NCBI GenBank assembly: GCA_964615815.1
Contig: CAZTQV010000013.1
Span: forward strand, 50,359-114,358
Length of the DNA stretch: 64,000 nt
Source of the DNA: an uncultured Phycisphaeraceae bacterium
GTDB taxonomy: Bacteria > Planctomycetota > Phycisphaerae > Phycisphaerales > UBA1924
Direction of reading: 5' to 3'
Shown here piece after piece: positions 1 to 40,694 of this stretch. Below the pieces are notes generated by a model. It was not told the origin of the DNA. It searched no databases and saw nothing but the letters and a program-made list of their open reading frames with translations. The first letter of the stretch is position 1. The number at the start of each line of letters is the position of its first letter. The translations under genes and the position numbers were made by a program.

Positions 1-545
1 GACTGGTACGACGGGCCCGAGTCCGTCCCCGCGTCGTAGGCGTAGAGGTCGAACACCAGCTCACGCGCCCACACGCCGCCCGGCCGCAGGTCCACGCCGT
101 GGATGCCCACGAACCAGTCCGGGCTCGGCGCGATCATCGTGACGAGCGTGACCAGCGGGAACCCCGCGTCGGCCGTGAAAAGCCCGTTGCGCACGCCCGG
201 CGAGAGCTGGATCCCGCGCAGGTTCAGGAACTGGTCCGCCCCGCCGAGCGCGATGTGCGACTGCACCTCCGTCTCGAGCGTGCCCGTCGCGCCCAGCTCG
301 GCCATCCGCTCGATGCCGTCGGTCGCGATGCCGTCCGGCTCCCAGAGCGAGACGCCCGCGGTGTGCGTCGCGCCGATGATCTCCGAGAAGTGCGGGTTGC
401 TCGGGAAGTTCGTCGGGTGCGTGACGACGCTCCACTCCGCGTCGAGCGTCATGCGGTACTCCACGGTCTGCTGGGCGAACGCGGGCGTGGCAACGCACCC
501 GAGCGCGATCACGCTCAGGCGGCACGGGGCGGCGGCTATCAACAT
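1..545 (-). CDS. Secreted Spondin_N-domain protein, N-terminal part only. The gene continues beyond the window start, so it has no stop here and is not in the ORF track.
   Basis: Manual reverse-complement translation from the ATG at 543-545 gives MLIAAAPCRLSVIALGCVATPAFAQQTVEYRMTLDAEWSVVTHPTNFPSNPHFSEIIGATHTAGVSLWEPDGIATDGIERMAELGATGTLETEVQSH... It begins with a signal peptide, followed by the Spondin_N pattern (RMTLDAEWS ... HP ... FP.NPHFS.IIGATH). GC3 bias fits the local coding pattern. Confidence 0.55.
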   Translation of the reverse strand, partial: MLIAAAPCRLSVIALGCVATPAFAQQTVEYRMTLDAEWSVVTHPTNFPSNPHFSEIIGATHTAGVSLWEPDGIATDGIERMAELGATGTLETEVQSHIALGGADQFLNLRGIQLSPGVRNGLFTADAGFPLVTLVTMIAPSPDWFVGIHGVDLRPGGVWARELVFDLYAYDAGTDSGPSYQ

Positions 546-676: not shown

Positions 677-2179
677 TTACGGGCACCCCGCCGTGTACGC
701 CGCGAGGAACGCGCTGATGTCCGCGAAGGTGAACTGCCCCGCCGGGGCCGCGAGGTCGGCGACCGGGTCGGCGAAGCTGAACGCGCTCAGGAACATCGCG
801 ATATCGCCGAAGGTCAGCTCGTTGAACGGCACCGCGAGGTCCGCCGCGTTGCACGAGGTGGTCGCGAAGGCCACGCTGTCCACGAAAACCGATCCGCCCG
901 GGCTCGACGCCGGCTGGCGGAAGAGGAGCGTCACGCGGGCCTCGACGGCGCCGGCGGGCGCGGCGCCCGTGAGCTCGAAGCGCGACCAGGTGTCCTCGGG
1001 CGAGCCCGCGTCGGCGATCACGATCTCGCTCTCGCCCAGGAACTGAGGCGACCCGTACGCGGCCCCGGCCTCGCTGTAGAACTCGACCTTGAGCAGCGCC
1101 TCGTTCGCGGTGCCCGCGATCGAGTCTTCCGAGCGCGTCAGCGCCTCGCAGCTCGCGACGAACCGCTGCCCGCCGCGGATCGCAACATTCTGCGACGCGC
1201 CGGAGTAGTTCTCCGAGCCGCTGAACTGCCCGTACATCTTGAGCGACCGCTCGCCGTCGAGGGGCGTGCCCCAGTCGGAGAAGACATTGCCGATCGTGTC
1301 GCCGAAGCGGTTCCACGCGTTCATCGCGCCGTTGTCGTCCTCGAAGCCCGCGTCGACCAGCAGCGACACCGGAGGCGGCGGCGTCGCCTGGCGCTGCCAC
1401 ACGCGCACATAGTCGATGTCGAACCACGCGGGGAAGGGCGTCGTCCAGTCCGGGTTCCCCGAGTAATTGCCGCCCACGGCGAGGTTCAGCACGATGCTCT
1501 TGGGCGTCCAGGGGAGGCCGACCGCGGGCTCGTACACCGTCATGTGCTGCACGCCGTCGACATAGAAGCGGACCGTGCCCGGCTCCCACTCGGCCGCGTA
1601 GATGTGGTACCCCGCCTGGAAGTTCGCCCCGCTCTCGTAAGCCTGCGAGACATACTGGTGCGACGCGACATCCCACCCCCAGTGCACCGCGCTGCTGATC
1701 CGCCAGGGCAGGTCGCCGCGTGCCTCCATGATGTCGATCTCGCCGCCCGCGGGCCACGACGCGTTCCGCGGCAAGAGCCAGATCGCCGGCCAGAAGCCTG
1801 TTCCGTTGGGCACCTTCGCCCGCACCTCGAAGCGCCCGTGGCTCCACTCCTGCCAGGTCCGCACCAGGCCCGAGTTGTACTCGCGCCCGAAGTTCCAGTT
1901 GGGGTCGCGGTCCGCCCGCAGGCGCAGCGACCCGCCCGACACCGCGACCTGGTTCGGGTGGTAGTACTGCAGCTCGTTGTTGTTGCTGCCGGCCCAGTTG
2001 GCCACCTCCCACGCCCCTTGGTTGATCGAGGCACCGTCGAAGGTGTCCTGGAACACCGGGTAGCCCCAGCCCGGCGCGATCACCACCTGCCCCAGCGCCG
2101 GCGACGCGAGCAATGCACAGCCAGCACAGGCAGCAAGGGCGAAGGCGCCGGCGACGGACTTGGATCGTGGGCAGGGCAT
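677..2179 (-). CDS. Secreted GH16 beta-glucanase (laminarinase-like) with a central CBM-like domain and a C-terminal tandem FADIS module.
   Basis: Signal peptide MPCPRSKSVAGAFALAACAGCALLA. GH16 catalytic motif GGEIDIMEARG (ExDxxE). C-terminus ...LTFGDIAMFLSAFSFADPVADLAAPAGQFTFADISAFLAAYTAGCP. Confidence 0.85.
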   Translation of the reverse strand: MPCPRSKSVAGAFALAACAGCALLASPALGQVVIAPGWGYPVFQDTFDGASINQGAWEVANWAGSNNNELQYYHPNQVAVSGGSLRLRADRDPNWNFGREYNSGLVRTWQEWSHGRFEVRAKVPNGTGFWPAIWLLPRNASWPAGGEIDIMEARGDLPWRISSAVHWGWDVASHQYVSQAYESGANFQAGYHIYAAEWEPGTVRFYVDGVQHMTVYEPAVGLPWTPKSIVLNLAVGGNYSGNPDWTTPFPAWFDIDYVRVWQRQATPPPPVSLLVDAGFEDDNGAMNAWNRFGDTIGNVFSDWGTPLDGERSLKMYGQFSGSENYSGASQNVAIRGGQRFVASCEALTRSEDSIAGTANEALLKVEFYSEAGAAYGSPQFLGESEIVIADAGSPEDTWSRFELTGAAPAGAVEARVTLLFRQPASSPGGSVFVDSVAFATTSCNAADLAVPFNELTFGDIAMFLSAFSFADPVADLAAPAGQFTFADISAFLAAYTAGCP

Positions 2180-5419: not shown

Positions 5420-6378
5420 TGGACCGGCGCGGCTTCATGGCGGGGCTCGCGGCGGCGGGGCTGGGGGCGGCGTTGGTCGCGCGGTCGCGGGGGGGCGAGC
5501 CTTCGCGCGAGGTGCTGCCGATTCGCACGGCGGTGAAGATCGGGATGATCGCGGGGGGGACGGGGCTGGTCGAGAAGTTCGCGATCGCGCGGGAGGCGGG
5601 GTTCGCCGGGGTGGAGCTGGATGCGCCGGCCGATCTTGATTCGGCGGAGGTCGCGGAAGCGAAGACGCGGACGGGGATCGTGGTGCCGGGGGTGGTGAAC
5701 TCGGTGCACTGGGCGAAGCCTCTCAACCATCCCGAGGCGTCGGTGCGGGAGGAGGGCGTCGCGGGGCTGGAGGCGGCGGTGCGCTCGGCGGCGGCGTGGT
5801 GCACGAAGACGGTGGCGCACGGGCCGACGGTGCTGCTGGTGCCGGCGGTGGTGCGGAAGGAGATGTCGTACGCGGAGGCGTGGCGGCTTTCGATGGAGGG
5901 GATCCTGCGTGTGCTTCCCTTGGCGCGGGAACTGGGCGTGCGGGTGGCGATCGAGAATGTGTGGAACGAGTTCCTCTTGAGCCCGGTGGAGGCGGCGCGG
6001 TACTCGGATGAGATCAACGAGCGGGCGGGGTGGGCCGGTGTGGGGTGGCACTTCGACATCGGGAATGTGTGGCGGTACGGGTGGCCCGAGCACTGGATCG
6101 CGGCGCTGGGCCCGAGGATCTGGCGCCTGGATGTCAAGGGGTACAGCCGGGCGAAGGCGGACGAGACGGGCAAGTGGTCGGGTTTCGGGGTCGAGATCGG
6201 CGACGGTGACCTCGACTGGGCGGCGGTGCGCACGGCGCTGCGGGGGATTGGCTATCGCGGGTGGGCGGCGGCGGAGGTGCGCGGCGGGGACGAGGCGCGG
6301 CTGCGCGAAGTGAGCGACCGGATGGATCGGGTGCTGGGGCTTGGTGGTTCGGGTTTAGATGAGGAGGCGCGGCCGTGA
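5419..6378 (+). CDS. Tat-exported sugar phosphate isomerase/epimerase (xylose isomerase-like TIM barrel).
   Basis: Tat motif MDRRGFMAGLAAAGLGAAL. TIM-barrel family blocks RVAIENVWNEFL and WHFDIGN. Its start overlaps the stop of the previous gene. Confidence 0.8.
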   Translation: MDRRGFMAGLAAAGLGAALVARSRGGEPSREVLPIRTAVKIGMIAGGTGLVEKFAIAREAGFAGVELDAPADLDSAEVAEAKTRTGIVVPGVVNSVHWAKPLNHPEASVREEGVAGLEAAVRSAAAWCTKTVAHGPTVLLVPAVVRKEMSYAEAWRLSMEGILRVLPLARELGVRVAIENVWNEFLLSPVEAARYSDEINERAGWAGVGWHFDIGNVWRYGWPEHWIAALGPRIWRLDVKGYSRAKADETGKWSGFGVEIGDGDLDWAAVRTALRGIGYRGWAAAEVRGGDEARLREVSDRMDRVLGLGGSGLDEEARP

Positions 6379-7649
6379 GCAGCGAGATGACGAGGCGTGA
6401 TGTGGTCAAGGCCGGGCTGGTGGCGGGCGCGGGGGCGCTGGTGGCGCCGGCGTTCGGGGCTCGGCTGAGCCGGAACGGGGCGGAGCGGATCCGCGTGGGC
6501 GTGATCGGGTGCGGGGGGCGCGGGACGGGGGCGGCGTGGAACGCTCTGGAGGCGGACGAATCGGTGGAAGTGGTTGCGTTGGCGGACCTCTTCGAGGATC
6601 GGCTGATGCGGTCGGCCGGGCAGCTGCGCGAGGAGTGGGGGGCGCGGGCGGATGTGGGGGAGGGGACGCGGTTCAGCGGGTTCGACGCGTACGAGAAGCT
6701 GCTGGCGCTGCGCGAGGTGGACATGGTGTGCCTGGCGACGCCGCCGCACTTCCGGCCGATTCACTTTGAGGCGGCGGTGCGGGCGGGCAAGCATGTGTTC
6801 ATGGAGAAGCCGGCGGCGGCGGACCCGGCGGGCGTGCGGCGGGTGATCGCGGCGGCGAAGGTGGCGGACGAGAAGGGGCTGAGCGTGGTGGCGGGGACGC
6901 AGCGGCGTCACCAGGACAACTACCTCGAGCTGATGAAGCGGGTGCGGGACGGGGCGATCGGGGAGCCGGTGAGCGCCCGGTGCTTCTGGAACCAGGGCGG
7001 GCTGTGGGTGCACGAGCGGAAGCCGGGGTACAGCGACATGGAGTGGCAGTGCCGGAACTGGCTGTATTTCTGCTGGCTCTCGGGCGACCACATCTGCGAG
7101 CAGCATGTGCACAACCTGGACGCGGTGAACTGGGTGATGGGTGGGCCGCCGGTGAAGTGCGTGGGGATGGGCGGGCGGCAGGTGCGTACGGACGCGAAGT
7201 ACGGGAACATCTTCGATCATTTCGCGATCGATTACGAGTACGCGTCGGGGGCGCACCTGACGAGCATGTGCCGGCAGATCGACGGGTGCCAGTCGCGGGT
7301 GGCGGAGTTCGTGCAGGGGACGCGGGGGCGTTCGACGAGCTGGCACGGGTACTCGAAGATCGAGGGTGAGACGGCGTGGGAGATGAAGGGCTCTGCGAAC
7401 CCGTATGTGACGGAGCACGAGGTGCTGATCGGGTCGATCCGGGGGGAGCGGAGCCGTGTGAACGAGGCGGTGCGCGTGGCGGAGAGCACGCTGACGGCGA
7501 TCATGGGTCGGATGAGCGCGTACACGGGCAAGGAGGTGACCTTCGAGCAGGCGATGGCGTCGTCGCTGGATCTGTCGCCGGCGGCGTACGCGATGGGTGA
7601 GCTGGAGACGGACCCGGTGCCGACGCCCGGGCGTACGCCTTTGGTGTGA
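6375..7649 (+). CDS. Tat-exported Gfo/Idh/MocA family oxidoreductase, paralog of 4109..5419.
   Basis: MSSEMTRRDVVKAGLVAGAGALVAPAFG Tat signal. RVGVIGCGGRGTG. Clear paralogy to 4109..5419 throughout. Confidence 0.85.
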   Translation: MSSEMTRRDVVKAGLVAGAGALVAPAFGARLSRNGAERIRVGVIGCGGRGTGAAWNALEADESVEVVALADLFEDRLMRSAGQLREEWGARADVGEGTRFSGFDAYEKLLALREVDMVCLATPPHFRPIHFEAAVRAGKHVFMEKPAAADPAGVRRVIAAAKVADEKGLSVVAGTQRRHQDNYLELMKRVRDGAIGEPVSARCFWNQGGLWVHERKPGYSDMEWQCRNWLYFCWLSGDHICEQHVHNLDAVNWVMGGPPVKCVGMGGRQVRTDAKYGNIFDHFAIDYEYASGAHLTSMCRQIDGCQSRVAEFVQGTRGRSTSWHGYSKIEGETAWEMKGSANPYVTEHEVLIGSIRGERSRVNEAVRVAESTLTAIMGRMSAYTGKEVTFEQAMASSLDLSPAAYAMGELETDPVPTPGRTPLV

Positions 7650-12750: not shown

Positions 12751-15700
12751 TCAGTTGCACCCGACCGCGAACGACTGCAGGAACGACGAGATATCCGCGA
12801 AGGTGAACTGCCCGATCGGCGCCGCGATGTCGGCGGCGGGGTCCATCGCGCTGAACGCGGCGAGGAACGCCGAGATATCCGCGAAGCTGAGCTGGCCGAC
12901 CGGGAAGGCGAAGTCGCTGCGGCAGGTGATGGCGACGACGGCCTCGTCGGCGTCGTAGAACATGCGGATCACCGCGTCCGCCGGCAGGGTGCCGACATAC
13001 TCGACGGTGTCGAACCGGCCCGTGAGGTTGGGCGAGGTGACGACGGTGTAGCGCGAGGGGCGGGGCGGGACGAAGCCGTCGATGGGCTCGAAGCGGATCG
13101 TGCCGCCGAGCTGCACGGGCAGGGTCGCGTCGATGCGGTCGTTGACTTCGACGGCGTTCGCCTGGGCGGTGTAGGTGGCGGTGGGGGCGAGGGTCAGGAT
13201 CGAAGCGGGCCCGGTGGAGCCGGCAACGATGGTGTTCACCGGGCCGGTGGTGGGGCTGGTGGCGGTGCCGGGGGCGATGCCACCCTCGATGACGATCGAG
13301 CCCACGAGGCGGCCGCGGCCGGTGAGCGACTGGCCCGCGCCGAGCGTCAGCGTGGCCCCGTCGAAGGCGAAGAGGCGGGCGTCGTTGAAGTCGCCGCTGG
13401 TGTCGGGGATGTTCAGCACGATGTCGCCCGTGCCGGTGATGGTGGTGTCGGCGGGGGCGTTCAGGCTCGTTGTGAAGATGCCGCCGCCCGTGGTGGTGTT
13501 GATGAGCAACGAGCCGTCGTTGACGAAGCCGCCGAGGATGTCGACCTCGGCGCCGTCGCGGATGCCGGCGTCTCCCGTGTTCTGCACATTCTCGATCGTG
13601 TTCGCGTTGCCCAGGAAGTGCACCGCGCCGCCGTTGCTGCTGGCGAGCGTGCCCCCGGAGAGGGCGGCGTTGAGGAGGACGGCGAACCCGCCGTCGTCGC
13701 CGCGGAGCTGGCCGTTCGCGGCCTGCGTCATCGTCCCCGTGATGCGCAGGTCCTGGCCCGCGCGGTCGCCCGTGATGGTGCCTTCGTTGATCCAGTTGCC
13801 GATCATTTGCCCCTTGCCGGAGATGGTGTGGCCGGGGCCGTGGGTCGCGGTGACGGGGCCGACGCCGTCGGTGCGGAGCTGCGCGTCGCCGAAGTCGGCG
13901 TTGCCGTCGCCGACATTCAGCTCGATGCGCCCCGTGCCCTCGATCGTGGTGTCTTCGGCGGCGTTGAGCACGCTGGTGAAGACGCTCTGCTCGGCGTTCA
14001 CGACGAAGAGGCCGTCGTTGACCAGCCCGCCGGACAGCAGGTCGATCCGGCCGCCGCTGCGGATGCCGGCGTCGCCGGTGTTGTGGATGTTGCTCACGGT
14101 GCTCGCGGTGCCCAGGGCGTACACGCCGCCGCCGCTGCCGTCGCTGGCGAAGGTGACTCCGTCGAGCGTGGCGCCCTCGATCGCGACGAACCCGCCGTTG
14201 ACCCCGTTCAGCAGCCCGTCGCTCCCGGGCAGCAGGCGGGCCGTGACGCGCAGGTCCTGCCCCGGGCGATCGGCCCGGATCTCGCCGCGCATGATCCAGT
14301 CGCCGCGCACGCGGCCCTTGCCGTAAATGACCTGCCCGGCCCCGAGCGTCCCGGTGATGTCGGTGCCCGTCGTCACGCGGGCGTCATCGAAGTCGGCGTT
14401 GGCGTCGTTGACATTGAGCTGGATCGTGCCGACGCCGTCGATCGCGGTGTCGTCGACGATCGTGAGCGTGGTGGTGAAGGGCGAGCTGTTGTCGTTGATG
14501 TCGATCGTGCCGTTGTTGGTCAGCCCGCCGCCGGCGACGCCGAGCGTCTGCCCGCCGTTGATGCCGACCGCGCCCTCGTTGGTGACGCCGTCGAGCGTGC
14601 TGGTGCCGCCGGTGGCGACGACCCGGCCGGCGTCGGCCTTCGTCAGCTTGCCGCCGGTGACGGTGACCGCGTTCAGCCCGAGCACGCCCCCGTTGATCGC
14701 CCGCAGCTCGCCGCTCGGCGGCTGCACGAGCTGGCCGCTGACGCGAAGTTCCTGCCCGGCGCGGTCGGCGAGAAAGGTGCCGTTGTTGACCCACGACCCG
14801 TTGATCAGCCCCTTGCCCGAGACGGTGTGGTTCGCGCCGTTGGTCGCGGTGACGCCGGTGTCGGTGAACAGCAGCGCGTCGCCCAGGTCGACATTGGCGT
14901 CCGCGACATTCAGGTCGAAGACGCCCCCGCCCGAGATCGTCGTGCTCGCGCTCACCCGCACGCGGGCCGAGAGCGAGCTCTGGAAGACATTCACCGTGAC
15001 CGTGGCGTTGTTCGTCACCGGCCCCGCGATGATCATCTCGCCCGTGTTGGTGGTCTCGACCACGCCGGACAGCGTCACGCCGTTGGTCAGCGTGCCCGCG
15101 CTCGAGCCGAACCGCACCCGCCCGCCGGTATCGGACGACACCGGCCCGCCGCGGATGATCGCCCCTTCGGCGATGCCCAGGATGCCCCCGCCCGTCGCCC
15201 GCAGCTCGCCCGTGCCCGAGCGCGTCACATCGCCCGACACGCGCAGCTCCTGGTCCGCGCGGTCCGCGAGGATCAGGCCCGCGTTCGTGAACACGCCCGA
15301 CACGATCCCCTTGCCCTTGATCGTGTGCCCCGCCCCGTGCAGGCCCGCGCCCGCGATGGTCAGCCGCGCGTCGGAGAAGTCAACATTCCCGTCGGCCAGG
15401 TTCAGCTCGACGATCCCCGACCCCGTCAGCATCCCGGGAGCGCTGCCGCCGATGTCCAGACGGTTGCTGAGCGCCCCCTGGTTCGCGTTCAGCACGATCA
15501 CCCCGTCGTTCACCACCGAGCCGCCGGGCACCGCGTAGGTCTGCGCGTTGTTGATCGCCAGCACAGCCTCCGGGTTCAGGATCGACAGACCCCCGACCGT
15601 GGGCGAGGTCCGCACCGTCACCGTGTACGCCCCGGCCAGCGAGATCTCCGCTGACTCCGAGATCGTGTCCGGCACGCCCATCGACCAACTCGCCGCGTCG

Positions 15701-15810
15701 TCGTAGAACCCGCCGCCGGCGTTGTTCCACGAGCTGACCTGCCCGTGCGTCGCCCCGGCAAGGGCGACCAAGAGCAGAGGGGCGGCGATGCGATGGGCTG
15801 AACGGACCAT
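12751..15810 (-). CDS. Giant secreted repeat protein A (~1019 aa). About 10 tandem modules of ~100 aa with the pattern GxGHTIxGKG...ADRxGQxLRxxG, plus a C-terminal tandem FADIS module.
   Basis: Signal peptide MVRSAHRIAAPLLLVALAGATHG. The ATG at 15810 was chosen rather than the longer track ORF. Internal repeats are visible in the translation. C-terminus CRSDFAFPVGQLSFADISAFLAAFSAMDPAADIAAPIGQFTFADISSFLQSFAVGCN. Confidence 0.8.
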   Translation of the reverse strand: MVRSAHRIAAPLLLVALAGATHGQVSSWNNAGGGFYDDAASWSMGVPDTISESAEISLAGAYTVTVRTSPTVGGLSILNPEAVLAINNAQTYAVPGGSVVNDGVIVLNANQGALSNRLDIGGSAPGMLTGSGIVELNLADGNVDFSDARLTIAGAGLHGAGHTIKGKGIVSGVFTNAGLILADRADQELRVSGDVTRSGTGELRATGGGILGIAEGAIIRGGPVSSDTGGRVRFGSSAGTLTNGVTLSGVVETTNTGEMIIAGPVTNNATVTVNVFQSSLSARVRVSASTTISGGGVFDLNVADANVDLGDALLFTDTGVTATNGANHTVSGKGLINGSWVNNGTFLADRAGQELRVSGQLVQPPSGELRAINGGVLGLNAVTVTGGKLTKADAGRVVATGGTSTLDGVTNEGAVGINGGQTLGVAGGGLTNNGTIDINDNSSPFTTTLTIVDDTAIDGVGTIQLNVNDANADFDDARVTTGTDITGTLGAGQVIYGKGRVRGDWIMRGEIRADRPGQDLRVTARLLPGSDGLLNGVNGGFVAIEGATLDGVTFASDGSGGGVYALGTASTVSNIHNTGDAGIRSGGRIDLLSGGLVNDGLFVVNAEQSVFTSVLNAAEDTTIEGTGRIELNVGDGNADFGDAQLRTDGVGPVTATHGPGHTISGKGQMIGNWINEGTITGDRAGQDLRITGTMTQAANGQLRGDDGGFAVLLNAALSGGTLASSNGGAVHFLGNANTIENVQNTGDAGIRDGAEVDILGGFVNDGSLLINTTTGGGIFTTSLNAPADTTITGTGDIVLNIPDTSGDFNDARLFAFDGATLTLGAGQSLTGRGRLVGSIVIEGGIAPGTATSPTTGPVNTIVAGSTGPASILTLAPTATYTAQANAVEVNDRIDATLPVQLGGTIRFEPIDGFVPPRPSRYTVVTSPNLTGRFDTVEYVGTLPADAVIRMFYDADEAVVAITCRSDFAFPVGQLSFADISAFLAAFSAMDPAADIAAPIGQFTFADISSFLQSFAVGCN

Positions 15811-15947
15811 TCTCTTCTCTCCCAAGTACTTGGACGGCCCCGGGGAGACCGCGCAGCACCCCCGGGAACCGGGAGGGTACAGCCGCGCGGGCCTCGATGA
15901 AAGCGGAAACAGCCGCGAAAGCGCGCCCCGAGCCCCGTTCCGGACCC

Positions 15948-18900
15948 TCAGGGGCACCCGCCGGCGAAGGCCGACAGAAACGCCGAGATATCGGCAAAGG
16001 TGAACTCCCCGGCGGGCGCCGCGAAGTCCGCGGCGGGGTCCCGGGCCGCGAACGCCGAGAGGAACACGGAGATATCCGCGAAGGTCAGCGAGCCCACCGG
16101 CAGGGCGAGGTCGGCGGAGCAGGTGACGACCGCGAGGACCCGCGTCGGCTCGACGAACACGCGGAACACCCCGCCCGGGGCCAGGTCGCCCGTGAACTCG
16201 ACCGCGTCGAACCCGCCCGTGATCGAGGGCGCCGTGATCAGCGGGAACTCAGCGCCGACGAACGGCACGAACCCGTCGATCGGTTCGAAGCGGAGTGTCC
16301 CGCCAAGCTCGACCGGAACGGTCGCCTCGATGCGGTCGTGTATGAAGATGAAGCTTGCCTGGACCTCGTAGACCGAGGTCTCCGTCAGCACAACGCCCGA
16401 ATCCGGACCGTTGCTGTCGGCGGTGATGATATCGGTCGGGGCATCCGCCGAGCCGGGCGAGAGCGCCCCCTCCACGCGGAACGAGCCGAGGAGTTGCCCG
16501 CGGCCGCTGATCGTCTGGCCCGGGCCAAGGGTGAGCGTCACGCCGGGGTCGGTGCGGAGCCGGGCGTCCTCGACAAGCCCGCTTCGTTTGCTCGTGTTGA
16601 GCACAATCCCGCCGTTTCCTTCGATGGTCGAATCCACCGTCGCGTCAAGGCTGGCTATGGAAATACCGGCGGTCGAGTTCACGACGATGATGCCGTCGTT
16701 GATCAACCCGCCGAGGATGTCCACAGACGCGAACTCTCGTACACCAGCTTCGCCAGTGTTGCGGATGTTCGCGATCGTGTTCGCTCTGCCCCTGAAGTCA
16801 ACGCCACCGCCCGTGCTGCTGGCGAGGGTGCCACCGGAAAGACTGGCATTGCTCAATGTCGCGCGGCCCCCGTTCTCCCCGCGGATGACACCCGTCGAGG
16901 TCTGCGTCATCGTGTCGCTGATGCGGAGATCCTGGCCCGGGCGATCGGCGACGATGATCCCCTCGTTGATCCATGTCCCGCTGATCTGGCCCTTGCCCGC
17001 GATCGTGTGGCCGGGTCCGTTGGTCGCGATCGCGGCATTGAGAAAGTCGGTTGTAATTTCGGCATCTTCGTAGTCTGAGCCGGCATCAGCGAGGTTAAGC
17101 TCGACGCGGCCGGTGCCGTTGATGGCTGCAGACTCCAGGAAATAGAGAGTTGTAGGACTTGCCTCGGCAGTCACATTGACCACGAACATCCCGTCATTGA
17201 TCATGCCGCCAGCGAGGAGATCGAGCCGCCTGCCCGCCACGATGCCTGAGACGCCGGTGTTATGGATGTTGTTGGCGCGACTTGGCAATTCCTGCCTACC
17301 GGCCGCATAGACGCCGCCACCGGCGTCGTCGCTTGCTAGGGTCAGGCCGTCAAGGTGTGCCTCAAAGATAATTACGCCACCGTTTATGGCGTTGAGTAAG
17401 CCGTCACTCCCCGACATCGAGTTGCTGAAGATTCGGCCACCGCCGGGGCGGTCGGCGCGGATCTCGCCGTGCACAATCCAATTGCCGATGACAAAGCCCT
17501 CGCCGAGGATGATGAGTTGCGAGGCACCGAGTGTTCCGGTCGTGCCATTCGCGACGCGGAGCTGGGAGCGTTCGTAAAGGCGGATGGCGCCGGCTCCATC
17601 GATGTTTGCGTTGTCGACCAGGGTGAGCGTGGTGCCGAACACCGAGCCGTCATCGCCAACATCGACGATGCCGTTGTTGGTCAATCCGCTGGCGATGACC
17701 AGCGTCTGTCCGTCCATCAGGCCCAGCGTGCCCTCGTTCGTCACGCCGACCAGCGTCGTCGGGCCACCTGTCGCGACGATGTGACCGCCTTCGTCCGTGG
17801 TGAGCGAGCCGCCGGTCAGCGTGAGGTTGTTCAGCCCGAGGACGCCCCCGTTGACCGCGCGGAGTTCGCCCTCGCCAGACTGCACGACCTCGCCGCGTAC
17901 ACGCAGTTCCTGGCCAGGGCGATCGCTCAAAAATGTGCCTTCGTTGATCCACGACCCGTCGATCCGCCCTTTGCCGGAGATGGTGTGGCTCGCCCCGTTG
18001 GTCGCGATGACCCCGGAATCGGTGTAGATGTAGGCTTCAGAGAACTCGTCGCTGCTGTCCGCGACATTCAGATCAATCTTTCCGCTTCCGGAAATCGCCG
18101 CAGAGGTGCGGATGCGGATCGCCGAAATCGACGAACTCTGAAACGCATTCACGGAAACCGTCGCGTTGTTCGTCACCGGCCCCGCGATGATCATCTGGCC
18201 CGCGTCGGTCGTTTCGACGACACCCGAAAGCACGACACCATTGGTCAGCGTGCCGGTACCCGAGCCGAACCGGATTCGTCCTCCCGAATCCGACGATACC
18301 GACCCGCCGCGGATGACCGCCCCATCGGCAACGCCCAGGACGCCGCCGTTGGTCGCGCGAAATGCGCCCGATCCGAAGCCCCGGACATTGCCGCCGATGC
18401 GCAGTTCCTGGCCCGGCCGGTCCGCAAGGATCAGCCCGCTGTTGGTAAAGACGCCGAGGACGGTCCCCTTGCCCTTGATCGTGTGCCCCGCCCCGTGCAG
18501 CCCGTTCCCGCTGATGCGGACCCGCGCACCGGCGAGATCATCGCTCGCGTCGCCCAGGTTCAACTCCAGAACGCCCGTGCCTGTCAGCATCCCGTCGATG
18601 CCGCCACCGCCGATGTCGAGCAGGCTGCTCAGCGGCCCCTGGTCCGCGTTCAGGACGATCAGGCCGTCGTTCACCACGGACCCGTTCGCCACGCCGTAGG
18701 ACCGGTCGCTGTTGATCGCCAAGACCGCACCCGGGTTGCGGATCGCGAGCGATCCCGCCGTGGGTGAGGTCCGCACCGTCACCGTGTACATGCCCGCGAG
18801 CGAGATCTCGGCCGATGCCGAGATGGTGTCCGGCACGCCCATCGACCAACTCGATGCATCGTCGTAGAACCCCCCGCTCGGGTTCGTCCACGAGCTGACT

Positions 18901-18998
18901 TGCCCCGCCGCCGAGCCCGCAACGAGCACGGACGCGGCGAACACGATCCGTCGTGGGAAGGGACTCGGGCGGGACGATCGGGTCGCGGGGTGGTTCAT
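15948..18998 (-). CDS. Giant secreted repeat protein B (1016 aa), tandem paralog of 12751..15810.
   Basis: The N-terminal ~300 aa are about 80% identical to protein A (QVSSWTNPSGGFYDDASSWSMGVPDTISASAEISLAG...). It has the same repeat architecture. C-terminus CSADLALPVGSLTFADISVFLSAFAARDPAADFAAPAGEFTFADISAFLSAFAGGCP. Confidence 0.8.
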   Translation of the reverse strand: MNHPATRSSRPSPFPRRIVFAASVLVAGSAAGQVSSWTNPSGGFYDDASSWSMGVPDTISASAEISLAGMYTVTVRTSPTAGSLAIRNPGAVLAINSDRSYGVANGSVVNDGLIVLNADQGPLSSLLDIGGGGIDGMLTGTGVLELNLGDASDDLAGARVRISGNGLHGAGHTIKGKGTVLGVFTNSGLILADRPGQELRIGGNVRGFGSGAFRATNGGVLGVADGAVIRGGSVSSDSGGRIRFGSGTGTLTNGVVLSGVVETTDAGQMIIAGPVTNNATVSVNAFQSSSISAIRIRTSAAISGSGKIDLNVADSSDEFSEAYIYTDSGVIATNGASHTISGKGRIDGSWINEGTFLSDRPGQELRVRGEVVQSGEGELRAVNGGVLGLNNLTLTGGSLTTDEGGHIVATGGPTTLVGVTNEGTLGLMDGQTLVIASGLTNNGIVDVGDDGSVFGTTLTLVDNANIDGAGAIRLYERSQLRVANGTTGTLGASQLIILGEGFVIGNWIVHGEIRADRPGGGRIFSNSMSGSDGLLNAINGGVIIFEAHLDGLTLASDDAGGGVYAAGRQELPSRANNIHNTGVSGIVAGRRLDLLAGGMINDGMFVVNVTAEASPTTLYFLESAAINGTGRVELNLADAGSDYEDAEITTDFLNAAIATNGPGHTIAGKGQISGTWINEGIIVADRPGQDLRISDTMTQTSTGVIRGENGGRATLSNASLSGGTLASSTGGGVDFRGRANTIANIRNTGEAGVREFASVDILGGLINDGIIVVNSTAGISIASLDATVDSTIEGNGGIVLNTSKRSGLVEDARLRTDPGVTLTLGPGQTISGRGQLLGSFRVEGALSPGSADAPTDIITADSNGPDSGVVLTETSVYEVQASFIFIHDRIEATVPVELGGTLRFEPIDGFVPFVGAEFPLITAPSITGGFDAVEFTGDLAPGGVFRVFVEPTRVLAVVTCSADLALPVGSLTFADISVFLSAFAARDPAADFAAPAGEFTFADISAFLSAFAGGCP

Positions 18999-32489: not shown

Positions 32490-34178
32490 GTGACCGATCG
32501 CTCCCACTTTCGCTCACCCGTCATGCCGGGCCTGCTGATGTCCACCCTCCAGCTCAGACTGACCTCCGGCCGCGGCCGACCCATCAAGCTCGGCAAGGAG
32601 CCGATCTCCATCGGCCGCCACCCCGACAACCGCCTCCGCGTCAAGGACGACCTCGCCTCCCGCCACCACTGCATCATCGAGCCCGCCCCCGATGTCGGCC
32701 CTGGCTGCTACCGCCTCAAGGACCTCCAGAGCCGCAACGGCACCAAGCTCAACGGCATGAAGGTCACCGAGAGCGTCCTCTCCGTGGGCGATGTCATCCG
32801 CATCGGCGCCATCGAGTTCGCCGTCGAAGAGCGCGGCTCCGAGAACGGCCCGAGCCTCTCCAGCAAGCGCAAGGTCTCCGTCGACGGCGTCCCCAACGCC
32901 GACACCCCCTGGGTCCAGGAGATCCAGGAAATCCTCGACGCCTTCGCCAGCCGAGGCACAGACGACGAAAGCCCCGTCCTCATCGACGCCCGGGGGCAGG
33001 ACACCAAGGCCATCGCCGGCTCCGGCGAGGGCCCACGCGCCCTGCGAGACCTCCTCCGCGTCGCCAGCCGCACCACCGCCACCGACATCCATGTCGAGCC
33101 CAAGACCGACGCGGTTCATGTCCGCATGCGCGTCGACGGGCAGATGGTCTGGATCACCGAGCTCCCCTCCCGCGTGGGCGAGCTGCTCATGGGCGTCCTC
33201 AAGACCGCCTGCCACATGCAGGCCGCCGCCCGCGACGCCATACAGGAGGGCCACTTCTCCTGCCGCTTCGCCAACCGCCGCGTCGAGTACCGCGTCAGCT
33301 TCACACCGTCGGTCTACGGCCAGAAGCTCGTCGTCCGCGTCCTCGACCAGCGGGGCGTCCCCACCAGCATCGAGGACCTGGGCCTCGTGCCCTACATGAC
33401 CGAGAAGATCAAGAAGGTCACCAACCTCGACGCCGGCATGCTCCTCGTCTGCGGGCCCACCGGATCCGGCAAGACCACCACACTCTACAACTGCCTCCGC
33501 GAGATCGACCGCGACGCGCGCAATGTCATCACCATCGAGGACCCCGTCGAGTACCAGCTCGAGGGCGTCACCCAGATGCCCGTCGACGACGGCCGCGGCA
33601 ACACCTTCCACTCCATGCTCCGCTCCGTCCTCCGACAGGACCCCGATGTCATCCTGCTGGGCGAGATCCGAGACGACGAGACCGCCCGCACCGCCATGCA
33701 GGCCGCCATGACGGGCCACCTCGTCTTCTCGACCGTCCACGCCAAGGACACCGTCGCCGCGATCTTCCGACTGCTCGACCTCCGCGTCGAGCCCTACCTC
33801 GTCGCCAACTCCGTCTCCCTCGTCCTCGCCCAGCGCCTCGTCCGCACCCTCTGCCCCCATTGCAAGACCGAGGTCCCCGTCCCCCCGGGCCTCGCCGGCC
33901 GCATGGGCCGCTACGGCAAGGGCGTCACGAAGTCCTACGCCCCCGTCGGCTGCAAGAACTGCCTGAAAACCGGCTTCCGAGGCCGCGAAGCCCTCTTCGA
34001 GCTCCTCGATGTCTCCGACGACCTCCGCGACATCATCCTCTCCAACCCCAACATCCAGGCGATGAAGAAGATCATCAACGAGGGCCAGTTCACCACCCTC
34101 GCCGAGTTCGGCTGGAAACTCGTCGCCGAGGGCCACACCAGCGTCGAAGAAGTCGACCGCGTCGCCGGCGGCAAGTGA
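32490..34178 (+). CDS. FHA-domain-fused GspE/PilB-type secretion ATPase (type II secretion / type IV pilus family).
   Basis: N-terminal FHA domain (ISIGRHPDNRLRVKDDLASRHHCII...LQSRNGTKLNG). Walker A GPTGSGKTT. Asp-box and His-box blocks typical of GspE. C-terminal tetra-Cys CPHC...C..C. The real start is probably MPGLL or MSTLQL, 30-50 nt inside the track ORF. Confidence 0.85.
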   Translation: MTDRSHFRSPVMPGLLMSTLQLRLTSGRGRPIKLGKEPISIGRHPDNRLRVKDDLASRHHCIIEPAPDVGPGCYRLKDLQSRNGTKLNGMKVTESVLSVGDVIRIGAIEFAVEERGSENGPSLSSKRKVSVDGVPNADTPWVQEIQEILDAFASRGTDDESPVLIDARGQDTKAIAGSGEGPRALRDLLRVASRTTATDIHVEPKTDAVHVRMRVDGQMVWITELPSRVGELLMGVLKTACHMQAAARDAIQEGHFSCRFANRRVEYRVSFTPSVYGQKLVVRVLDQRGVPTSIEDLGLVPYMTEKIKKVTNLDAGMLLVCGPTGSGKTTTLYNCLREIDRDARNVITIEDPVEYQLEGVTQMPVDDGRGNTFHSMLRSVLRQDPDVILLGEIRDDETARTAMQAAMTGHLVFSTVHAKDTVAAIFRLLDLRVEPYLVANSVSLVLAQRLVRTLCPHCKTEVPVPPGLAGRMGRYGKGVTKSYAPVGCKNCLKTGFRGREALFELLDVSDDLRDIILSNPNIQAMKKIINEGQFTTLAEFGWKLVAEGHTSVEEVDRVAGGK

Positions 34179-34323
34179 CCCTCGTGTGAAGTCCCGATTC
34201 TGAAGTCACATCTAGATTGCCCAGTGTCGCACCACGCGCCCCTTCCGCTTCTAAACGGGAAGCCATCGGTCCCGTCCCGGACGCGTCGTCCGTGTCGGCA
34301 CCGATCAACGGAAGAGAAGAACC

Positions 34324-35199
34324 ATGTGGCCATCCCGCGCTCTCGCCGCATCCGCGGCGCTCGCTGTCGTTCCATCGCTCGCCGCTGCCCAGGGAGGGAC
34401 CATCCCGTCGGTCCAAGGCGACCGCGATGTTTGCATCCAGGGCTGCTACGCGGCGTTTGTCCCCGGCACGCCCGCGTTCGAGGAGTGCATCGCCCTGTGC
34501 AACCTTGACTTTGTGGTGGACCTGACCGCTGTGCTCGATCAGGACTTCGGCATCCGTCCACCCATCCCGTGGCTGTTCCGCGCCGACCCGCCCTGGGCGA
34601 ACGGCGTGCCCGGCTATCTGCTCGACCCCACACCGACGCCGATGATCCCCGTCGATCCGGACTTCGCCGTGCTCGGTCTCGGCGCGTTCGACCTCAACGC
34701 GGCCCGCGCAGGCGACCTCACGCTCTCGGATATCTTCGGTCCCGGCGCGACGCCGTTTCTTCAGATCGTCCCCGCCACCCAGGCCGGCTGGACCAGCGTC
34801 CGCATGGAACTGGACGACTTCAACGGCAAGGTCACCGATGTCCCCGAGCAGGACATCGCTCCGGACGACTTCGGCCAGTACCTCCGCATCGACCTCACGC
34901 AGAGCCTTCAGGACTATCCCGATGCTCAGCCCGTCGCCGTCCGCATCGAGGCCGAGTCGCCGAGCTTCGTGAACAACGACAACCCCAGCGGCGTGATCAT
35001 CATCATCGGCACCATCCTGCCCACACAGGCCGCCGCCGCCGACCTCGCGTCACCGATCGGCCTGCTCACCTTCGCCGACATCTCCGAGTTCCTCGCGAAG
35101 TTCACCAACGAAGATGGCCTCGCCGATCTCGTCGACCCGTTCGGCGCCTTCACTTTTGCCGACATCAGCGCGTTCCTGAGCGCGTTCAACGACGGATGA
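34324..35199 (+). CDS. Secreted protein of unknown function ending in the tandem FADIS C-terminal module.
   Basis: Signal peptide MWPSRALAASAALAVVPSLAAA. C-terminus LASPIGLLTFADISEFLAKFTNEDGLADLVDPFGAFTFADISAFLSAFNDG. Confidence 0.7.
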   Translation: MWPSRALAASAALAVVPSLAAAQGGTIPSVQGDRDVCIQGCYAAFVPGTPAFEECIALCNLDFVVDLTAVLDQDFGIRPPIPWLFRADPPWANGVPGYLLDPTPTPMIPVDPDFAVLGLGAFDLNAARAGDLTLSDIFGPGATPFLQIVPATQAGWTSVRMELDDFNGKVTDVPEQDIAPDDFGQYLRIDLTQSLQDYPDAQPVAVRIEAESPSFVNNDNPSGVIIIIGTILPTQAAAADLASPIGLLTFADISEFLAKFTNEDGLADLVDPFGAFTFADISAFLSAFNDG

Positions 35200-39323: not shown

Positions 39324-40694
39324 CTAGAACTGCTGGCTCGTGAGGGTGAGGAGGGGGATCATGATGCTCATGATGAGGGAGCCGATGAAGGCGAAGAGGG
39401 CGACGATGAGGAGGGGCTCGATCGCGGCGAGGAGGCGGGCGGTGAGGGTGTCGAGGCGCTCTGCCATGTCCTTGCTGAGCTCTTCGAAGGCGCCGTCGAG
39501 GTCGCCGGCGCGGTCGGCGGCGACCAACAGAGTGCGCGTGGCGAGGGGGAGGGTGGTCATGCGGCTGATGAGGGTGCGGAGGATGCCGCCCTCGACGAGG
39601 CGGGCGCGGAGCTGGTCGAGTTCGCGGCGGAGCTTGGGGTGGTTGACGGCGTGGACGGAGACGCCGAGGGATTCGGCGAGGTTGACGCCGGAGCGGCTCA
39701 TGGCGGCCATGACGGAGAAAAAGCGGGCGAGTTCCTGGGTGAGGATGACTTCCTTCAGGAGTGGCACGGAGCGGGCGACGCGGCCCAGGGCGGCGCCGAT
39801 GGCGGCGCGGGCGGCGTAGGCGAGGGCCCCGAGGACGGCGAGGCCGAGGAGCACCGGGCCCCATTGGTCGCGGAGGAACTGGCCCAGGCCCATGACGAAG
39901 CGGGTGTAGGCGGGGAGGTCGAGGCCGGCCTCTTCGAGCGAGGCGCCGATCATGGGGAGGATGACGGTGAGAAGGAGGACGCCCGCGAGCAGGCCGACGG
40001 TGGCGACGATGGCGGGGTAGATCAGGAGCGTGATGGCCTTGTTGCCGATGGCCATGCGGCGGCGGATGGTGCGGGCGAGCTGTTCCGATGCGGCGGCGAG
40101 GTCTCCGGTGCGTTCGGCGGCTCGGTAGACGGCGACGGTGACGCGGTCGAAGCCGCCGGCGGTGGCGGCGGCGTCGGCGAAGCTGGAGCCGGCGGCGACG
40201 CGCTCGCGCATGCGGTCGACGCGGGACTGCTGGGCGGGCTTGACGACGCTGGCGGCGACCTCGAGGGCGTCGACGAGGGGGACTCCCCGAGACACGAGCT
40301 GGGCGAGCTGTTCGTTCAGGGCGGCCTGGTCGGACGGGCTCATCGCCTTCTCGGGGGCGAGCCACGCGGGGACTGGCCAAGTTCGGAGGACGACGAGGCG
40401 GTCGCGCTTCAGCGTCTCGCCCAGGGCGCGGGAGGAGCGGGCGCGGCGGACGCCCATGGAGCGGGCGCCCGCGGGGTTCGCGGCGAGGTAGAGGAACGCC
40501 TTGGGGTTCGCGGCACGGGACACGGGTGGATGGTACTTCGGCTGGGGGTCGGGGTTGCGGTGAGTCGGGAGGGGGCCTGGGTCTGGGTTCGGGGCTGGAT
40601 GTTGGTGTGTGTACGGTACGCGGCTTTCGGCGGGGAGGGAGGTACCATCTGGTATGACACACGCTGCTGCGCCGACTGTGACGCCTTCCACCAC
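39324..40694 (-). CDS. Type II secretion / type IV pilus platform protein, GspF/PilC family.
   Basis: Two GspF repeats (GVPLVDALEVAA..., GVNLAESLGVS...) and three TM segments (LLIYPAIVATVGLLAGVLLLTVILPMI, LIVALFAFIGSLIMSIMIPL). The true start is likely an internal Met (MGVRRARSS), around 40450. Confidence 0.8.
   Translation of the reverse strand: MVEGVTVGAAACVIPDGTSLPAESRVPYTHQHPAPNPDPGPLPTHRNPDPQPKYHPPVSRAANPKAFLYLAANPAGARSMGVRRARSSRALGETLKRDRLVVLRTWPVPAWLAPEKAMSPSDQAALNEQLAQLVSRGVPLVDALEVAASVVKPAQQSRVDRMRERVAAGSSFADAAATAGGFDRVTVAVYRAAERTGDLAAASEQLARTIRRRMAIGNKAITLLIYPAIVATVGLLAGVLLLTVILPMIGASLEEAGLDLPAYTRFVMGLGQFLRDQWGPVLLGLAVLGALAYAARAAIGAALGRVARSVPLLKEVILTQELARFFSVMAAMSRSGVNLAESLGVSVHAVNHPKLRRELDQLRARLVEGGILRTLISRMTTLPLATRTLLVAADRAGDLDGAFEELSKDMAERLDTLTARLLAAIEPLLIVALFAFIGSLIMSIMIPLLTLTSQQF

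Follow-up and report, generated by a model that had tools for sequence, protein, structure and literature searches.

GC-type dockerin tails with remodelled loops on four predicted secreted proteins of an uncultured Phycisphaeraceae bacterium

Four carriers of one C-terminal module

In a stretch of 64,000 nucleotides from an uncultured Phycisphaeraceae bacterium (GenBank assembly GCA_964615815.1, contig CAZTQV010000013.1, positions 50,359 to 114,358; called the window hereafter, with coordinates counted from its first base), four genes encode proteins that end with the same module of 55 to 58 residues, which a preliminary description had presented as a candidate novel tag on four unrelated secreted proteins. 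The first carrier, giant repeat protein A, is encoded on the minus strand (12751..15810; 1,019 amino acids from an ATG at 15810) and runs from a signal peptide through internal repeats of about 166 residues to a dockerin tail, the interval 12751-12930 being the minus-strand 3' end of its gene. Giant repeat protein B (15948..18998, minus strand; 1,016 amino acids), of which an identical protein exists in the public collection at NCBI, is its tandem paralog; the two share 59% identity over their full length, and in both a motif recurs every ~166 residues. The third carrier is a secreted beta-glucanase-like enzyme of family GH16 (677..2179, minus strand; 500 amino acids; Pfam PF00722 Glyco_hydro_16, E 1.9e-21), whose protein-cluster members carry the name 'beta-glucanase (GH16 family)'. 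The fourth is a secreted protein of 291 amino acids (34324..35199, plus strand) with an N-terminal domain of no recognised family, as a Pfam scan of its residues 1-236 gave none. Outside their dockerin tails, the giants A and B match no Pfam or NCBIfam family either. The repeats of both giants (12751-18998, minus strand) contain recurring G-K-G ... DR[AP]GQ[ED]LR motifs.

Read from the translations, the N-termini of all four carriers are signal-peptide-like, ending in G or A followed by Q, in line with the proposed secretion; the carriers are, however, not all unrelated, since A and B are paralogs, and it is only beyond this pair that no relationship is found. The open reading frame of giant A as first listed (12751..15957, minus strand) begins at an upstream GTG at 15957. 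Judged from the translation, the true start is most likely the ATG at 15810 (MVRSAHR...), because the signal peptide comes right after it, and the long GTG-initiated frame, which overlaps the end of gene B, is probably an artefact.

The C-termini quoted in the preliminary description match the translations of the four reading frames exactly. In giant A the module covers 12754..12924 on the minus strand (CRSDF...AVGCN, 57 residues, stop codon at 12751-12753) and consists of two loop-plus-helix segments; in giant B it covers 15951..16121 on the minus strand (CSADL...GGCP, 57 residues, stop codon at 15948-15950), in the GH16 enzyme 680..853 on the minus strand (CNAADL...AGCP, 58 residues, stop codon at 677-679), and in the 291-residue protein 35032..35196 on the plus strand (AAADLAS...AFNDG, 55 residues, stop codon at 35197-35199). 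The translations bear out the two-repeat layout and the bracketing by cysteines in three of the four copies, the exception being the 291-residue protein, in which both the N-flanking Cys and the terminal Gly-Cys-Pro are missing. Pairwise, the modules are 64-68% identical over 55-58 residues, with 25 invariant columns. A hidden Markov model (HMM) that I built from them, run against the six-frame translation of the window, recovers these four copies and no others (E 5e-29 to 8e-32, the lowest value being that of giant A), and the motif [FLIVM][ST]F[AG]D[IVL] is confined to the eight expected places. Many synonymous sites differ in the DNA of the four copies, with serine switches between TCG and AGC among them, which argues that their similarity is kept at the protein level and rules out recent gene conversion among them.

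Family membership and distribution

The module had been taken for a family without a name, and this does not hold. The NCBIfam model NF041540.1, 'dockerin_GC' ("GC-type dockerin domain-anchored protein"), a domain model of 67 positions with a curated cut-off of 29 bits, matches the tails over its full length (profile positions 1-67), from the N-flanking Cys to the terminal Gly-Cys, at E-values between 6e-11 and 4e-6. Giant B scores 42.5 bits, giant A 34.6 bits (residues 1012-1067 of 1068, counted in the GTG-started frame), the GH16 enzyme 32.9 bits (residues 446-499 of 500) and the 291-residue protein 27.1 bits, just below the cut-off. The terminal Gly-Cys(-Pro) of the family is found in giant A, which ends in GCN, and in giant B and the GH16 enzyme, which end in GCP; the 291-residue protein ends in NDG and does not have it. 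I regard it as very nearly certain that the four tails belong to this known, curated and lineage-specific dockerin family, and nothing is new at the family level. A full-text search of the literature found no paper naming the GC-type dockerin family or the accession NF041540.

As an independent curated model matches all four tails, they are not a product of chance or low complexity. The module is Ala-rich and the GC content of the window is 68.9%, which could raise the suspicion of a chance Ala/Phe-rich tail in a genome of such composition, or else of a recent DNA duplication; the E-values of the curated model, thousands of homologs with the same architecture, the synonymous divergence between the copies and the confident predicted fold described below refute such an artefact, to which I assign a negligible probability.

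A word-indexed homolog search with the module profile yielded just 16 short fragments. Run exhaustively over 1.84 billion representative proteins, HMMER instead found 2,934 clusters with E<=1e-3, of which 521 reach E<=1e-10. In the proteins that were retrieved, the domain match extends to the last residue in 152 of 169 cases, and 147 of the 169 tails read GCP. A scan of one genome per species led to 75 loci, which span a few percent of each genome; in these, 175 of 183 module matches end exactly at the stop codon, and nearly all of the loci come from metagenome-assembled genomes (MAGs) of Phycisphaerales or Phycisphaeraceae. Restriction to the C-terminus and to one clade, which the preliminary description had named as points to be checked, is thus what the wider collection shows. 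The MAG DAIQNV01 has at least 31 copies of the module in the fetched DNA alone, compared with the four in the 64 kb of the window. As cargo, the carriers have a variety of extracellular domains (FG-GAP, DUF7453, beta-helix, reprolysin, M14, S8, amylase, LTD, PA14 and Ig), and a hydrophobic run is present near the N-terminus in 87 of 93 full-length family members.

Two of the loci need a separate remark. L049 (JAESQF010000003.1, a contig of 3.7 kb from an 'Oleispira sp.' MAG), with two canonical GC-type modules, is the only one labelled neither Planctomycetota nor unclassified; the probable cause is an error in binning, not horizontal transfer, as the short contig shares the NORP study with Phycisphaerales MAGs. 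In L010 (6001-6510), masked bases (N, translated to X) break the end of the open reading frame with the GC module, and the one module in these loci that looks 'internal', at 117 residues from the end of its frame, is therefore an assembly artefact.

Such strictly terminal placement is also what one would expect if the module were a C-terminal sorting or secretion signal, with an export or processing machine recognising the folded domain and the Gly-Cys-Pro, and then removing or modifying it. Type IX C-terminal domains (CTDs) and the exosortase and rhombosortase signals act in this way, as C-terminal signals that are first recognised and then processed. That a genome has the module on dozens of secreted proteins without relation to one another, and that only one lineage has it, fits this explanation too. 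However, the known sorting signals (LPXTG, PEP-CTERM, GlyGly-CTERM and the CTD of the type IX secretion system, T9SS) are rejected as candidates, as the chain stops one or two residues after the Cys; no transmembrane helix or basic tail follows the module in any of the four carriers, and NCBIfam and Pfam scans of these carriers gave no match to a CTERM model or to the T9SS model Por_Secre_tail. This agrees with the earlier remark that the tail is not of the sortase or exosortase type. Moreover, in one protein of 317 residues (P0111) a complete Cys...GCP module comes right behind the signal peptide, with a Cys-rich region of 240 residues without a Pfam match after it, and in a few proteins a third loop-helix segment is present (P0017 and P0108; P0054 is also atypical), which indicates that the module is an autonomous domain. 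The 291-residue protein of the window retains a well-conserved module in spite of the loss of the terminal GCP, and both sequence and predicted fold are dockerin-like. A sorting signal remains the main rival to a docking function, though I think it rather improbable.

Remodelled loops, fold and genome-specific signatures

Most relatives from other genomes have, in each segment, a 12-residue EF-hand or dockerin loop with D1, [N/T]3, D5, G6, [N/D]9, F10, F11 and D12, followed by I/V-S-A-F-L-x-A-F. The copies in the window have a different loop, D1-L-A3-x-P5-[F/A/I]-G7-x-[L/F]-[T/D/N]10-F-[A/S/F]-D13, which is carried by 138 of the 150 best database matches, with Ala at position 3 in 93-95% and Pro at position 5 in 100%. 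In both loops, D-x-[NT]-x-D-G-x-[LF]-[ND]-F-F-D has become D-L-A-x-P-x-G-x-[LF]-T-F-A-D, a loop of 13 residues with an inserted Pro. EF-hand positions 3 and 5 no longer offer a side-chain ligand, with Ala at 3 and a hydrophobic residue replacing 5, and position 9 is weakened, the equivalent residue usually being Thr; because of these losses, canonical coordination of Ca2+ by the window-type loop seems unlikely from its sequence. Profiles of the variant and canonical GC modules nevertheless align with an hhalign probability of 99.6% (E 5e-24) and a single one-residue gap per loop, at the inserted Pro, and NF041540 scores both alike (40-58 bits for canonical-loop and 36-50 bits for variant-loop relatives). 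Hybrid modules, variant in the first loop and canonical in the second, exist as well: in L025-L027, L054, L063 and L038, A-E-P-F-G in the first segment is combined with N-N-D-G in the second, in otherwise canonical genomes. They may represent an intermediate stage in evolution between loops of the calcium type and those of the proline type.

The canonical modules give sub-threshold matches to Pfam Dockerin_1 over both segments (E 1e-3 to 3e-2; 15-19 bits against the gathering score of 22.9 bits of PF00404) and sub-threshold matches to EF-hands, and with phmmer they match dockerin structures from Ruminococcus. Compared with the PDB, the canonical profile finds mostly dockerins, led by 2y3n_B (E 3.9e-4) and followed by 5k39, 6kg9, 8ajy, 2b59, 3kcp, 1daq, 1ohz and others. 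The window-type copies alone match no Pfam family, PF00404 and the EF-hand included, and no PDB sequence. It is these canonical-loop relatives that reconcile two earlier observations, both of them correct: that the layout of the module recalls dockerins, and that its residues do not fit the calcium-binding consensus of dockerins.

The predicted structure is confident and shows two tandem segments of ~22 residues, each a loop followed by a helix, in a three-helix, dockerin-like fold. Its helices are only 12-13 residues long and no helix precedes either loop; for this reason, and since the window copies have no EF-hand match, an EF-hand pair was rejected. The closest structural matches of the predicted fold are protein-protein docking modules, and a Foldseek search of the PDB with the 62-residue model gave no match.

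Both flanking cysteines, the one before loop 1 and the one in the terminal GCP, are nearly always there (158 of 161 variant modules, 103 of 105 canonical ones), the 291-residue protein being the only family member seen without either. In dockerins, the two termini are known to touch, forming an 'intramolecular clasp' (PMC3821032). Given this contact and the near-universal cysteine pair, it is a reasonable inference from the sequences that the two cysteines form a disulfide clasp joining the termini of the module.

Within a genome, the tetrapeptide that precedes each helix and the type of loop hardly vary, but they differ from genome to genome. The signature is TFAD in 56 of 60 segments of DAIQNV01, DFFD in 20 of 20 of JBPOFX01, NFLD in 12 of 12 of JASBRY01 and NFFD in 40 of 46 of NVSM01; in the window it is TFAD in 6 of 8. 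At the signature positions, the two segments within a protein co-vary (e.g., 0.92 as against 0.45 in shuffled pairs, in statistics that ignore phylogeny and on loci whose sampling was seeded by sequence patterns). The signature positions lie at the loop-helix junction, which is also where type I dockerins have their cohesin-recognition residues. As the signatures shift in concert over dozens of paralogous tags, and over both halves of each, they match what a single co-evolving partner would bring about. The substrates of one sorting enzyme would show genome-wide concerted signatures too, which speaks also for a sorting signal.

A candidate docking tag and its relation to known systems

A cell-surface docking tag, although unproven, is the best functional reading of these observations. 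I estimate the probability at about 60% that the module is a dockerin-fold tag with a disulfide clasp, which tethers secreted cargo to a common partner, probably without calcium. The GC-type dockerin is a lineage-specific branch of the dockerin fold, carried by dozens of secreted proteins per genome in the Phycisphaerales (Planctomycetota); its two duplicated loop-then-helix segments stand between a Cys that precedes loop 1 and a Gly-Cys-Pro at the end of the chain. The two cysteines would tie the termini together as a covalent version of the 'intramolecular clasp', and in the form found in the window a Pro-containing hydrophobic loop, together with the disulfide, would stabilise a calcium-independent fold. 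The folded module may tether its cargo, which here comprises the GH16 glucanase, the two large repeat proteins and the small 291-residue protein, non-covalently to one common, genome-specific extracellular partner, possibly a cohesin-like receptor or another component of the envelope.

No cohesin came up in Pfam scans that covered every plausible open reading frame in the window and used relaxed E-values for the hypothetical ones, nor does the window encode any other obvious receptor or processing enzyme. The other genes of the window are housekeeping or regulatory, encoding ApbE, GFO/IDH/MocA oxidoreductases, MarR, methyltransferases, a BCCT transporter, methylmalonyl-CoA mutase with MeaB, a hybrid histidine kinase, SerRS, an ATPase with FHA and T2SSE domains, T2SSF, DnaK and others. 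The GH16 gene is adjoined by that of a Spondin_N-domain protein (PF06468, E 1e-39; 3-545, minus strand), the C-terminus of which runs off the start of the window. The gene of the 291-residue protein starts 146 nt 3' of that of the FHA-domain T2SSE/PilB-like ATPase (32490-35199 for the pair, plus strand); the same gene order is repeated on an independent Logan contig (L076, 2138-4814), and a T2SSF gene lies at 39324-40694 (minus strand). One GFO/IDH/MocA oxidoreductase (6375-7649, plus strand) has a weak match to a twin-arginine (TAT) signal at its N-terminus, and its gene is followed by that of a xylose-isomerase-like TIM-barrel protein; together with the GH16 gene, these two may form a periplasmic sugar-oxidation set.

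Few cohesins have been reported from related genomes as well. MAGs of the Nemodlikiaceae (CL500-3 Phycisphaerae) have 25-42 dbCAN dockerins and only 0-2 cohesins each, and a hypothetical 'planctosome' displaying M12B and M14 peptidases was proposed for this family (Andrei et al. 2019, ISME J, PMC6461901). The scarcity of cohesins in such genomes is one more point in favour of a sorting signal. It would also suit a module with a non-protein ligand in the envelope or the substrate (such as a polysaccharide, peptidoglycan or a metal), or one that only stabilises or oligomerises its cargo, without any cohesin-like receptor, and the canonical relatives do look like EF-hand calcium binders. However, the calcium ligands are lost in the window variant, so that metal binding is not the conserved function; a generic ligand would leave unexplained why genome-specific signatures are concerted over all copies and both segments; and the nearest structural neighbours of the fold serve in docking between proteins. 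I consider this explanation unlikely, slightly more so than a sorting signal.

A wider proposal, which I put forward tentatively and hold to be less probable than not, is that the D-L-A-x-P-x-G...T-F-A-D form is a natural calcium-independent, disulfide-clasped dockerin that tags a lineage-wide, cohesin-poor surface display similar to the 'planctosome', its receptor co-evolving genome by genome with the four-residue signature in both halves of the tag. A literature search on calcium-independent dockerins found nothing relevant. Genome by genome in a widespread aquatic lineage, the GC-type module marks secreted hydrolases, peptidases and giant repeat proteins by the dozen, and the parts worth following up are its remodelled calcium loops and its genome-specific signatures. 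In the form found in the window, the calcium ligands that define dockerins are lost and an invariant proline is gained, while the predicted fold is kept; if this fold forms without calcium, it would be a natural counter-example useful for cohesin-dockerin biology and for protein engineering. Through covariation or co-folding screens, the signatures offer a concrete starting point in the search for the receptor.

With respect to the NF041540 family, nothing essential differs in the window, apart from the copy in the 291-residue protein with its missing cysteines and its score below the cut-off; the remodelled-loop form bears no separate name within the family. The likeness to the 'planctosome' lies in the host class, Phycisphaerae, in the dozens of dockerin-bearing secreted proteins per genome, and in a cargo (M12B reprolysin-like, M14 and LTD) whose families are also found on proteins with the GC module (PMC6461901). 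However, that work relied on generic dbCAN and InterPro models of dockerins and cohesins; the 'planctosome' is, moreover, a computational model that presumes calcium-dependent binding (PMC6461901), of which the window variant is probably incapable.

Compared with EF-hand pairs (PF13833, PF00036), the canonical GC relatives share the perfect 12-residue loop D-x-N-x-D-G-x-x-N-x-x-D, but the GC modules have no entering helix, which is the 'F-hand' layout of dockerins, and the window copies do not match the EF-hand at all. The cellulosomal type I and II dockerins (PF00404; 2y3n, 2vn5, 6kg9, 3ul4, 1ohz) differ from the window copies in that the latter are without calcium ligands 3 and 5, have a Pro-containing loop of 13 residues and do not match PF00404. 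The Cys...Gly-Cys-Pro bracket and the obligatory position at the end of the chain are features of the GC type and not classical in cellulosomal dockerins, and the hosts of the former are aerobic or marine planctomycetes, whereas those of the latter are cellulosome producers. In the symmetry of their two segments, however, the GC tags resemble dockerins with a dual binding mode, such as 2vn5.

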